64,000 nucleotides of DNA from Escherichia coli. GTDB taxonomy: Bacteria > Pseudomonadota > Gammaproteobacteria > Enterobacterales > Enterobacteriaceae. The stretch lies in NCBI RefSeq assembly GCF_030384885.1, contig NZ_CP128613.1; one strand, written 5' to 3'. Below, one piece after another: positions 23,736-27,588 of this stretch (position 1 is the first letter of the stretch; every line of letters begins with the position of its first letter). The notes under the pieces were generated by a model. The model was not told the DNA's origin. It saw only the letters and a list, made by a program, of their open reading frames with translations, and did not search any database. A program made the translations under genes and the position numbers.

Positions 23736-23842
23736 AAACGACTGGTATCGCTTTTCGCCATATTTGTGTAACGAGAAAAGCCATGCAAATACTATAATTC
23801 GTATTTCTCTCAAAGAGAGTGAAGATAATCAGGAGGTCCAGG

Positions 23843-24640
23843 ATGGACATTCGACTATTAGCAACGCTATGGTTATGGAATATCTCCCCTCGATTAGTCG
23901 TTATCGTCACGACCATTGCCTTCTCTTCCTGCTCGTGGGCTCGACTCACTCCCTGTAACAGTAAATCCGATATTGTTTGCCTGCAGTTGCGTGCGCAGCA
24001 AGGTAAATCATCGGATCAATACGATCTTGCATGGATATATCTAAAAGGGGATGGTGTAACGCCTAAAGATGATAAAAAAGCGCTGTACTGGTTTCGTAAA
24101 GCTGCAGAGAATGGTATGGCGGGAGCGCAGTATCGTCTTGGACGCCGTTATTATTCAGGTGATGGGGTGACATAAAATTATAAAGAAGCTTTTAACTGGT
24201 TTATGAAAGCTTCCGGGCGGGAAAATTCCTGGGGAATAGCCGCCGCACGCTACATGGTTGGGGTAATGTATTATCGTGGGCAGGGGGTTGAAAAGAATTA
24301 TACTCATTCTTTTTCCTGGTTTATGAAGTCGCTGAACGGGGCAGGTCGAGAGAAAGCAAGTAGGGCTTGCTACTTTATCGGTTCACAATATCTCAGTGGT
24401 CATGGCGTTACGCAAAACAACGACCTTGCCGTTGCCTGGTTTTATCTTGCAGCAAAATTAGGTTTGCCAGAGGCAATAGAGTATATATCGGGAATAGAAA
24501 AGCAATTCTCAGCGGAAATGCTCAAGCCCGCAAGAATCGAAGCGAACAGAATTAATGCCAAACATTATCTTGTACAGATACCTTTCCCGGAGTTATTGGC
24601 AGAGTCTGCGGCGGAAGTTGTAGTGAAGGGGGCAAAATGA
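23843..24640 (+). pseudogene. Sel1-repeat (TPR-like) exported protein interrupted by an in-frame TAA inside a Sel1 repeat
   Basis: AGGAGG 6 nt upstream of ATG 23843; N-terminal hydrophobic signal-like segment; four Sel1-type repeats (e.g. ALYWFRKAAENGMAGAQYRLGRRYYSGDGVT); TAA at 24173-24175 sits at a repeat position and the reading frame continues (GDGVT*NYKEAFNWFMKAS) to 24640. Confidence 0.7.
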
Positions 24641-25437
24641 AAAAAAGCGTATTGGCGTTCTCAATGCTATTTTTTAGCTATGCTGTCTACGGGGGTAATA
24701 GTATAGTGCCTCCGGCGAAGTATATGTCTTCGGATGCACTACCTCTCCAGATTGTCTACCGTTTTGACGATCACCGTTATATCATTTTAACAGGTGAAAA
24801 GCGGCATTACGACGGTGTTGATTATTGTTCAGGTCAATACTGGTATACTGATACACAAAAAAATATATTTTCCCGTGTTGGCGATACGCGTCACAACAAA
24901 TGGGTTCCGGAATCCATTGGTTCACGTTCTGCAATCACTCCCTCATATGACAGTCCACTTCCTGAAAATATAAAGTTTATTCATGATTCTGAAAAGTATA
25001 TTTTTGTACCTCTGGGGGGCGATCCACATAAAAAAGATAAAAATGGACAACTGATTTATGAATACCATGAAGTGCAAATGTCATCCGATTATGGCGCGAC
25101 CTGGAAAGATATCAACTTATCGGTTGAACCCGCGACCAGTGATACGCGATTGATTTTTCATGAGGGCCAGCTATTTATTGATGATAAGGATGGGTTTTAT
25201 CTCAGTCAAATCCCGATGCATAGTTTTTTTATGTATTATTATGATTATCACAGTCAGAATAATGATGTTAATCTGCCCAAAAATGTACCAGTCATTAAAA
25301 ACTATCGCGGTTGGGATCACATGCAGTGTTCAGAAAATGCAGAATTATCTGTAGAAGAGGCGGAACGTTTTCAACAAGATCGCCAAAGAAGTTGGGATTC
25401 CTGGGGCCGAAAAGGTGATGAAAAAAACTATAAGTAA
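24637..25437 (+). CDS. Exported hypothetical protein with a single Asp-box (SxDxGxTW) motif
   Basis: 266-aa ORF; ATGA overlap with the preceding gene stop; N-terminal signal peptide MKKSVLAFSMLFFSYAVYG; motif SSDYGATW; AT-rich. Confidence 0.7.
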   Translation: MKKSVLAFSMLFFSYAVYGGNSIVPPAKYMSSDALPLQIVYRFDDHRYIILTGEKRHYDGVDYCSGQYWYTDTQKNIFSRVGDTRHNKWVPESIGSRSAITPSYDSPLPENIKFIHDSEKYIFVPLGGDPHKKDKNGQLIYEYHEVQMSSDYGATWKDINLSVEPATSDTRLIFHEGQLFIDDKDGFYLSQIPMHSFFMYYYDYHSQNNDVNLPKNVPVIKNYRGWDHMQCSENAELSVEEAERFQQDRQRSWDSWGRKGDEKNYK

Positions 25438-25471
25438 TGTCAGTAATGCATCAGCTTAGTCTGGATTGAAC

Positions 25472-26137
25472 TTATAAATTACCTTCAATCATGATATTCT
25501 GATATTTGTTTAAGAGCGGTTTCATCCACTCAATAACATACTTAATGAATTCTGCATATTCGGTATTTGTTTGTGCCTTAGCTAACCATTGTTCAATTAT
25601 CTTTGCGCATTCATCTGAGGTAAATTCATTCCAGCTTGTGTAATCAAAAAATGTTTCACCATTGGCTAAAGGGTATAGTGACTTAATAGCCGGGGATAGT
25701 ATTTCAAAATCGCACTCATAAATAAAAAGACTAGCAACATTGTAATCCCATCCACCGTTAGGTTCCTCCTTGTAAGGATAGATAGAACAACCAATACGTC
25801 CATCACTACGGCGATGTTTTTTACGCAGAAAAATACGATGGCTTTTTTCGTATGCGTCAGTGTAATAATCGGGAACAGGTTGACTAAGAGCTGCACTGAA
25901 TGCTGTCAAAAATTTATCCCGTTCTTGTGGATGCATTTCCCGGTTGCATTGATAATTGATATTTATGTAATTATCTGTCCAGGAAATGTTACACATGTGA
26001 TTTTTGCTATTTACACAAAGTTCTGAGTTGGTAATGACTTCATTTATTTGCTGTATGCCCCAGTATTCACGGAAGAGCTCAAGTATTCTGATTTGTTGTT
26101 CTGCAATGCATATTGTTGTGTTGGTTGTGATTATCAT
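25472..26137 (-). CDS. Hypothetical cytoplasmic protein (221 aa), no motif recognised
   Basis: Long ORF in an AT-rich stretch, convergent with the preceding gene and downstream of the 417-aa gene on the same strand. Confidence 0.55.
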   Translation of the reverse strand: MIITTNTTICIAEQQIRILELFREYWGIQQINEVITNSELCVNSKNHMCNISWTDNYININYQCNREMHPQERDKFLTAFSAALSQPVPDYYTDAYEKSHRIFLRKKHRRSDGRIGCSIYPYKEEPNGGWDYNVASLFIYECDFEILSPAIKSLYPLANGETFFDYTSWNEFTSDECAKIIEQWLAKAQTNTEYAEFIKYVIEWMKPLLNKYQNIMIEGNL

Positions 26138-26196
26138 TTTAGTTATTTTGCTTCATTTCCAGATTTAAAAAGACATATCTTTCACTATTATTGCAG

Positions 26197-27450
26197 TTAA
26201 GACTGCTGATAAGACGTTGCCGTTGTCCGGCACTCCGGGCAGATAAACGCGTAAATCATCCCTTCGCCATATTGTTCAATATCGGCATAATCCAGTTGCG
26301 CAAGAAACATCATTGTGTGGGAACATTGCGGACAGAGAGGATATTCCGCGTCCTGAATCCAGGTTGGATGCCCGCCAAGTTGCGAGAAAGAGACAGGTAA
26401 AAATGGGTCTGCGGCAAATAACGGTGACCTAAGGTTTCCCTGTCTCATGCTGTTTACAGGGAGTCGACGCCATTCCGATACATCATCCGGCAGCCAGGCA
26501 GGCGGTGCAGACAAATGAGCGTTACCCCGTGAGTCTATGTAACCGAAAATGGTGCTATAGGCGGTGCAACATTCACACGTCACGACGCGAAACCTGCCTT
26601 TATCGCTAAGACCCGTTGCCTTCAGGTCAACGTCGAAAAGATTTGTTAGGGGCAATGCGCAATTTGGACAGGTATCGCTGCGTTCATCAACAACACGCAA
26701 AGCTTCGCAACACCCGGTGCTTTTCATCTCCAGATGAAAACAGTGAGGAAAATAGAGATTACGTCTCTGCCCTTCAGCGGTTAACTCCCAACCGGCCTCA
26801 TGCACATATTCTTCTGGCGCGATGTAAAGTGAACTGCGCCACAGCGGCGGGTTATTGCGCCAGTAGGCAAAACGTTCAACAACAACGTCATCCCCAATCC
26901 ATGCCAGACATTGCAGAATACAATTTCTGTTTTCTGCATCATCCTCAACCCGTTCTAACAGCGTATCGCGAACATCCGCTGGGGCGCGGTGGAAAGGCAG
27001 AGGAGAATAAGCGTCTAAATCATCATAAGAGATCCACTCTCGTAAATATGCATCCAGATTTGCCTGGGTAAACGCCGCCAGACAAAGACAAATCTCCTGA
27101 GCGTGTTCATATTCACCAGACGCAAAGCGTTCTGTGGCGCAATCAGCCATCAGCTGCGCTTGATCGGCAGTCAGTTGTTGATACAGGGCATCGGTGGGAA
27201 CGGGGCAGGGAGTCCAGTCGATTAACGCATCGAATTTCCGTGGCTGGTGAACTAATTTCAGCATGGCAATCGGATCGCTTAGCCCAGCAAACACATTCAC
27301 GGTCTTTTTATTTTTCCTGATATATTCATCGTGCTCACGCTGCTGTTGTGCCTGAACGCAGGGCATACAGTATCCGTCAGTACGCGCAGCGGTTTCCGGA
27401 AGAATGGTTGATGTACAAGCGGGGCTTTTACAGGGAATACGGTGAGTCAT
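26197..27450 (-). CDS. Cys-rich hypothetical protein (417 aa) with YwqG/DUF1963-like C-terminal region
   Basis: Long ORF; N-terminal CxxxC...CxxC cluster; C-terminal LGGHPTWIQDAEYPLCPQCSHTMMFLAQLDY...GMIYAFICPEC resembles the DUF1963 pattern as I recall it. Confidence 0.65.
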   Translation of the reverse strand: MTHRIPCKSPACTSTILPETAARTDGYCMPCVQAQQQREHDEYIRKNKKTVNVFAGLSDPIAMLKLVHQPRKFDALIDWTPCPVPTDALYQQLTADQAQLMADCATERFASGEYEHAQEICLCLAAFTQANLDAYLREWISYDDLDAYSPLPFHRAPADVRDTLLERVEDDAENRNCILQCLAWIGDDVVVERFAYWRNNPPLWRSSLYIAPEEYVHEAGWELTAEGQRRNLYFPHCFHLEMKSTGCCEALRVVDERSDTCPNCALPLTNLFDVDLKATGLSDKGRFRVVTCECCTAYSTIFGYIDSRGNAHLSAPPAWLPDDVSEWRRLPVNSMRQGNLRSPLFAADPFLPVSFSQLGGHPTWIQDAEYPLCPQCSHTMMFLAQLDYADIEQYGEGMIYAFICPECRTTATSYQQS

Positions 27451-27588
27451 AGAGGCGCTCCTTGCCTGAGGATATTAAGTCGAAAGAGATTATTATTAGA
27501 TATTAGGGTGTCACTATGGCACACAAATTAAAACAGCATTAATTTTATGCCACCAACCGAGGGTTATTTTTCTTTTATTTTCATGATA

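Follow-up and report, generated by a model that had tools for sequence, protein, structure and literature searches.

A probably composite islet between eutR and hemF of Escherichia coli with a candidate orphan Sel1-Tli3 immunity pair, a TYPP-family gene, and a gene of a very rare family

In Escherichia coli K-12, the convergent core genes eutR and hemF are neighbors, with stop codons 5 bp apart. In the 64-kb stretch of E. coli contig NZ_CP128613.1 analyzed here (the window), the same gap is filled by a 3.8-kb islet that contains four genes, one of which is broken in two. This raises the questions of whether these genes form one system and of how they came to be located here. The original prediction, made from the letters of the DNA, described the open reading frames (ORFs) of the islet and the K-12 neighborhood as we found them, recognized no product as a member of a family of known function, and left open whether the genes act together. 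The second of these statements does not stand, since described families (Sel1 repeat, Tli3 PF24316, and DUF1963/TYPP family 2) account for three of the four genes. The caution about a single system was well placed because the modules occur separately elsewhere and nothing indicates that they form one. We favor, with a probability of roughly 0.6, the reading of the islet as a composite, in which three unrelated pieces (an orphan Sel1-Tli3 pair, a relic TYPP gene, and a rare gene for a 221-aa protein) occupy a permissive gap.

The 266-aa protein of the islet matches the Pfam family Tli3 (PF24316) with an E value of 1.2e-15 over residues 36-162. It has 35 invariant columns in common with Tli3 proteins encoded directly after vgrG-tle3 in Serratia and Enterobacter. 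A profile of its family matches 8BOZ_B, the Tli3 chain in the crystal structure of Tle3/Tli3 from adherent-invasive E. coli (E 4e-5), and weakly matches sialidase BNR repeats. A search of the PDB with the single sequence gave no match, and the protein has a weak match to phrog_32974, a family of unknown function. As had been predicted, it has a hydrophobic N-terminus consistent with a signal sequence and an Asp-box (SxDxGxTW), found here as SSDYGATW. In the structure from adherent-invasive E. coli LF82 (PDB 8BOZ), a loop of Tli3 plugs the substrate-binding crevice of the lipase (PMC9860674). The 266-aa protein resembles LF82 Tli3 in its family, in the motifs QVVYRFDDHRY...CxGxxWYTDT...SxDYGxTW...GWDHMQC, and in its predicted export. 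Unlike LF82 Tli3, it is encoded with no adjacent tle3 and is always preceded by a Sel1 gene.

The decisive context for an immunity reading is a metagenomic contig (L093). The order of coding regions on this contig is the C-terminus of vgrG, Tle3, a canonical Tli3, a Sel1 protein (290 aa), a Tli3 that is 45% identical to the 266-aa protein, PAAR, and a further effector. Thus, as in the Tle3/Tli3 system, a homolog of the 266-aa protein sits in a vgrG-tle3-tli3 array. The overlap between the Sel1 and Tli3 genes on L093 is the same as in the window, where the stop codon of the Sel1 gene and the start codon of the 266-aa ORF overlap as ATGA at 24637-24640. No tle3, vgrG, or PAAR was found in the 64-kb window, suggesting that Sel1-Tli3 is an orphan cassette of a type VI secretion system (T6SS) immunity family. 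Orphan immunity genes in and outside T6SS auxiliary clusters have been described for Vibrio cholerae and Pantoea (PMC7702109, PMC9796082). Like these, the islet pair contains an effector-less immunity-family gene of foreign composition that is patchily distributed and in places pseudogenized. Unlike these, it is not part of a T6SS locus but is found between two housekeeping operons, at the same site in E. coli, cryptic clades of Escherichia, and E. albertii.

The first gene of the pair is a pseudogene in the window. A single in-frame TAA at 24173-24175, in place of AAA at codon 111 in relatives, splits it into fragments of 110 aa and 145 aa and leaves no intact reading frame; both this stop codon and the ATGA overlap had been noted in the original prediction and are real. 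The fragments match Sel1/TPR-type NCBIfam models, and these repeat-level matches were all that a scan of the islet products against NCBIfam returned. They also match phrog_8741 (E ~6e-15), a family of unknown function. The ortholog from E. albertii is intact (287 aa), contains Pfam Sel1 (PF08238), and has matches to Sel1 proteins in the PDB down to 1e-59. The change from AAA to TAA is common to the window and strain 2013C-4282. In strain 2017-02-2CC the gene (L001 6444-7240) was inactivated independently, by loss of 1 bp from a G run. A role of Sel1-repeat proteins in T6SS immunity is established, as shown by Sel1E of Klebsiella pneumoniae, which acts against the DUF2345 domain of VgrG4 and has Pseudomonas aeruginosa PA5087 (PDB 5JKP) as its closest structural homolog (PMC7108748). 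Like Sel1E and PA5087, the islet gene specifies an exported Sel1-like repeat protein of a T6SS effector/immunity array, and on L093 it is downstream of vgrG. Unlike Sel1E, the gene in the window is a pseudogene, and the likeness was compared at the level of the repeats. PA5087 is an immunity protein for Tle5b.

Based on homology, both products would be exported to the periplasm, where the Tli3-like protein would bind and block the incoming Tle3-family phospholipase of a competitor by placing a loop in its substrate-binding crevice. Its Sel1-repeat partner might act against another toxin in the periplasm or help the Tli3-like protein. With Sel1 dead and no effector genes, the cassette would provide at best partial 'cheater' protection, and it is decaying. 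The Sel1 and divergent-Tli3 genes appear to move as a unit that is seen at several stages of decay across Escherichia, a feature that could help in work on how immunity genes are retained when effectors are missing.

The 417-aa protein has 22 Cys residues, consistent with its earlier description as Cys-rich. Its N-terminus forms a C4 zinc ribbon. This is followed by a helical domain that is HEAT-like, with helices 86-219 similar to HEAT/ARM repeats, and then by a beta domain of the YwqG fold, which was recognized by fold search alone. The beta domain has two additional CxxC pairs and a GGHP motif, with YQQS at the C-terminus. Alignment of 31 sequences showed that C7, C12, C28, and C31 of the N-terminal cluster are invariant, as are C261/C264/C292/C295, C373/C376/C404, G359, G360, P362, Q385, and Q415, with C407 nearly so. 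The conserved residues include the motifs SQxGGxPxWxQD and a C-terminal YQQ[ST]. The TYPP superfamily is defined by these motifs, and an N-terminal zinc finger with a helical domain characterizes its family 2 (Burroughs & Aravind 2014, PMC4275035). The 417-aa protein has the GGxP motif, the conserved Q, and the paired CxxC in the beta domain as well as the N-terminal C4 zinc finger and alpha-helical domain, placing it in family 2. It lacks three residues (KNI, at about residue 317) found in its 420-aa relatives because of an in-frame 9-bp deletion in a loop modeled with lower confidence. A search of the PDB with the single sequence gave no match, and a family-profile search did not recover YwqG (1PV5). 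The eukaryotic TYPP proteins PDCD2 and Tsr4 are dedicated chaperones of the ribosomal protein uS5 (PMC7736825). By analogy with these, the 417-aa protein, a zinc-binding protein with HEAT and TYPP domains, is most likely a protein-binding adaptor or chaperone for some client. The likeness to PDCD2 and Tsr4 is drawn from the family and does not imply a ribosomal client.

Full-length homologs of the 417-aa protein, with 38-58% identity, occur in several genera of Enterobacteriaceae, Chitinimonas, Verrucomicrobia, Clostridium, and many Paenibacillus species. The gene lies directly after amiA-hemF in E. albertii, Superficieibacter, and UBA3516 (an uncultured enterobacterium), and in Salmonella with YpfK in between. 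Synonymous divergence (dS) from E. albertii is 0.55 for this gene, and 0.55 and 0.64 for hemF and eutR. The 417-aa gene has a core-like G+C content (GC) of 0.50. The synteny, the GC, and the match in dS together indicate that it is ancestral and was lost by most E. coli, not acquired. It would be a stand-alone Enterobacteriaceae gene 3' of amiA-hemF that was deleted from nearly all E. coli. We found no terminator-like site in the spacer between hemF and the 417-aa gene, suggesting that read-through from amiA-hemF is possible, and co-transcription of the three genes is plausible. A functional link between hemF and the TYPP protein was also weighed, but we rejected it since the family is not linked to hemF outside Enterobacteriaceae, and the two loci examined there, from Chitinimonas and Paenibacillus, have no recurring neighbor. 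The amiA-hemF-TYPP order is thus an old arrangement in Enterobacteriaceae and offers a tractable host for probing the function of bacterial family-2 TYPP proteins.

The rest of the islet differs in composition from the 417-aa gene. The 2.4 kb on the eutR side (23736-26196) has a GC of 0.40 compared with 0.525 (standard deviation 0.047) for the window, and about 1% of 400-bp segments outside the islet have a GC this low. GC is 0.35-0.45 along 23.8-26.2 kb, the part that had been described as visibly AT-rich, and is 0.36 in the 221-aa gene. A tRNA, an Rfam match, a flanking repeat, and an integrase or transposase ORF were all looked for in the islet and none was found. Thus, the hallmarks of a genomic island (integrase or transposase, tRNA target, flanking direct repeats) are absent, as the original prediction had largely reported, and composition is atypical for 23736-26196 and not for the 417-aa gene. 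The horizontal acquisition proposed for the islet therefore fits the AT-rich part and does not extend to the 417-aa gene.

No match to the 221-aa protein was found in Pfam, NCBIfam, PADLOC, or PHROG, or among plasmids searched with tblastn. Its close homologs form only 8 clusters, with the gene in the hemF-eutR gap in every context that could be examined, and a full HMMER scan of 1.84 billion representatives gave 26 relatives. An AlphaFold2 model (predicted local distance difference test score 93.4) contains an N-domain of ~85 residues with generic fold matches only, to TBP-like/KA1 and Bet v 1 folds. This is followed by a C-terminal domain of ~110 aa with an invariant D-F, an FDxTxxN motif, and a terminal invariant GNL. 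The C-terminal domain has no Pfam match and is found both on its own and in fusions with TBP-like or UBA-like N-domains, and the relatives in the AlphaFold database are all uncharacterized. Weak fold matches of the model to SciW, DMP12, and DcrB were not built on. The three contexts of distant homologs that were examined (polC-rimP, fatty-acid oxidation genes, and an HD/AAA_33 gene) have no common neighbor and no toxin. In other Escherichia the 221-aa gene is tail-to-tail with an SNF2-family gene, with or without a TYPP gene, and its presence with SNF2 in strains that have no TYPP gene indicates that it is not an obligate partner of the 417-aa gene. We propose that this AT-rich gene, which has a weak ribosome-binding site, is a stand-alone cytoplasmic gene of a very rare family. 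That its C-terminal domain marks a new small-protein function, for instance a cytoplasmic immunity or regulator family, is a long shot. On that reading, the protein might work with the neighboring TYPP protein or, in other strains, with the tail-to-tail SNF2 helicase. The analysis does draw attention to this domain as rare and without an entry in Pfam.

The whole islet is present in 2 of 5,426 complete E. coli genomes, so it is not common at this site and is accessory, as had been proposed. The 417-aa gene is present in 28 of the 5,426, mostly with the 105-aa YpfK replacing the AT-rich part. In two sister genomes the NCBI annotation already names the families of the islet genes. The exact 266-aa and 221-aa sequences recur on >500 contigs, a sign of a single lineage that has been sequenced heavily. 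These two genes also occur in cryptic-clade Escherichia (e.g. TW10509) and E. albertii, where they are often fragmented; the Tli3 gene is in pieces in cryptic clades, and some E. albertii have a truncated copy. The four-gene arrangement is the same in E. coli and E. albertii. In other strains the hemF-eutR gap contains the 417-aa gene and YpfK, or the 221-aa gene and the SNF2-family gene, so the two convergent units described for the islet are not a fixed arrangement. Gap variants from other Escherichia (L004 5361-8810, L005 6669-10118, and L006 6802-10245) encode an SNF2-related protein of 1,147-1,149 aa with DUF8276, DUF3670, SNF2, and Helicase_C domains, tail-to-tail with the 221-aa homolog. 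YpfK (PF26378), also found in the gap, is a membrane protein for which a literature search gave nothing relevant. Thus, the hemF-eutR gap is a small variable hotspot in which cassettes are shuffled.

Several points weigh against this composite reading or its functional parts. The Escherichia 'B-type' Tli3 proteins have ...FFSYAVYGGN and no Cys where canonical members and the L093 homolog have the L-x-x-C of a lipobox. From inspection of this region, the 266-aa protein is predicted to be exported as a soluble periplasmic protein and not as an outer-membrane lipoprotein. Compared with canonical Tli3, the B-type has two insertions, one large deletion, and a charged 30-aa tail at the C-terminus, and local BLASTP gives an identity of only 25-28%, with one shorter match at 42%. 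Neutralization of a Tle3 by the B-type protein is a prediction. On L093 the Sel1-Tli3 (B-type) pair (3935-5604) has a GC of 0.37-0.40 compared with 0.49-0.50 for tle3 and the first tli3, so that the pair looks inserted there too, like a mobile orphan cassette. At the DNA level, tle3 of the L093 type is absent from the 5,426 E. coli genomes. The 417-aa protein differs from YwqG of B. subtilis (PDB 1PV5), to which it is 11% identical, and its Pfam DUF1963 match is weak and partial (E 5.7e-5), with the model covering 51 positions (1-51 of 216). The chaperone role suggested for it is pure analogy. The context of the 221-aa family comes from the three distant loci examined, a thin sample.

We considered whether the islet is instead a silenced relic that is heading for deletion, with intact ORFs that have merely not yet been damaged. 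The ratio of non-synonymous to synonymous substitution rates (dN/dS) between E. coli and E. albertii is 0.13 (Tli3), 0.26 (221-aa gene), and 0.17 (417-aa gene), compared with 0.03-0.05 for core genes. The three intact genes are thus under purifying selection over this distance, and the exact proteins recur undisrupted on the many contigs of one lineage. This makes a relic unlikely even though the islet is absent from ~99.5% of E. coli, Sel1 has been inactivated twice independently, fragmented copies of the Tli3 and 221-aa genes occur in cryptic clades and some E. albertii, and the 221-aa gene has a weak ribosome-binding site. The AT-richness would also make silencing by H-NS plausible.

A second alternative is that the 221-aa and 417-aa proteins are also orphan immunity proteins, acting in the cytoplasm against polymorphic toxins, so that the whole islet is devoted to immunity. 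Both genes adjoin two T6SS immunity genes, and the modules that make up the 417-aa protein (HEAT-like and TYPP) are of kinds that bind proteins. Small proteins that consist of the C-domain of the 221-aa protein on its own are found in Paenibacillus, Ruminococcus, Fusobacterium, Capnocytophaga, Acinetobacter, and Moraxella, which are rich in polymorphic toxins. We regard this alternative as distinctly unlikely because the 417-aa family keeps 38-53% identity across phyla, unlike fast-evolving immunity genes, and is carried by many Paenibacillus species, and because no toxin adjoins the 417-aa homologs in the two loci examined or the 221-aa homologs in their three contexts. That the four genes form one novel co-functioning system on both strands, for envelope stress, T6SS defense, or anti-phage activity, is highly improbable despite the arrangement kept between E. 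coli and E. albertii and the hint of a defense hotspot given by the SNF2-family helicase gene, because each module is found without the others (the 417-aa gene by itself or together with YpfK, the 221-aa gene beside SNF2 where there is no 417-aa gene, and Sel1-Tli3 in a T6SS array), the two halves differ in GC, one member is a pseudogene, some products are predicted to be periplasmic and others cytoplasmic, and none of the five islet ORFs has a credible match among the PADLOC-DB 2.0 anti-phage models. On the composite reading, an apparently uncharacterized islet becomes a recognizable, putative orphan T6SS immunity cassette together with an ancestral gene lost by most E. coli.

Table 1. Features of the eutR-hemF islet and its boundaries, with positions in the window.
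Feature	Position	Strand	Remarks
eutR	22683-23735	+	left boundary core gene (ORF listing)
spacer 5' of Sel1 gene, 107 bp	23736-23842	+	promoter presumed; strong consensus promoter not found in scan
Sel1-repeat exported-protein gene, pseudogene	23843-24640	+	ORF fragments 23819/23843-24175 and 24203-24640
Tli3-family T6SS immunity protein, divergent 'B-type', 266 aa	24637-25437	+	PF24316
gap between convergent 3' ends, 34 bp	25438-25471	.	terminator-like hairpin searched for, not found
221-aa protein, rare family with no Pfam entry, predicted cytoplasmic	25472-26137	-	
417-aa TYPP/DUF1963 family-2 protein	26197-27450	-	
spacer from hemF stop to 417-aa gene start, 138 bp	27451-27588	-	good AAGGAG ribosome-binding site
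hemF	27589-28488	-	right boundary core gene

Outside the islet, the window matches strain 2013C-4282 at 100% identity and typical E. coli at ~98%. The immediate flanks of the islet (~23000-23735 and 27589-29400) are 87-97% identical to K-12 compared with 97-100% further out. The last ~0.7 kb of eutR is 87-95% identical to K-12 compared with 97-100% further in, and hemF and amiA (to ~29400) are 92-97% identical compared with 97-99% beyond. Because the divergence is confined to the flanks, the islet appears to be on an old or introgressed haplotype. This suggests that it travels with a divergent haplotype that is either ancient or was introgressed by homologous recombination. An origin of the strain in a non-coli Escherichia, raised by flanks that are 92-93% identical to typical E. 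coli, was rejected given the identities of the rest of the window. Patches of 92-97% identity to K-12 are also found in eutC-eutL (window ~20000-22000).

Other differences among strains were observed beyond the islet. K-12 contains a prophage remnant (intZ, yffL-yffS) between eutA and eutB (L099 986-7608), and in the sister strain 2017-02-2CC these two genes are adjacent (L001 372-3148). At window positions 40000-46000, where yfeS (encoding a WGR-domain protein) is among the listed features, the matches of several E. coli strains are broken into at least two pieces that span ~1 kb or more of extra DNA; the window may lack this segment. Other short AT-rich patches (GC 0.34-0.41) are located at window ~8400-8700, ~55100-55600, and ~57700-58000, and the last two are in the core yfeN-xapA-xapB-xapR region that is common to most E. 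coli.

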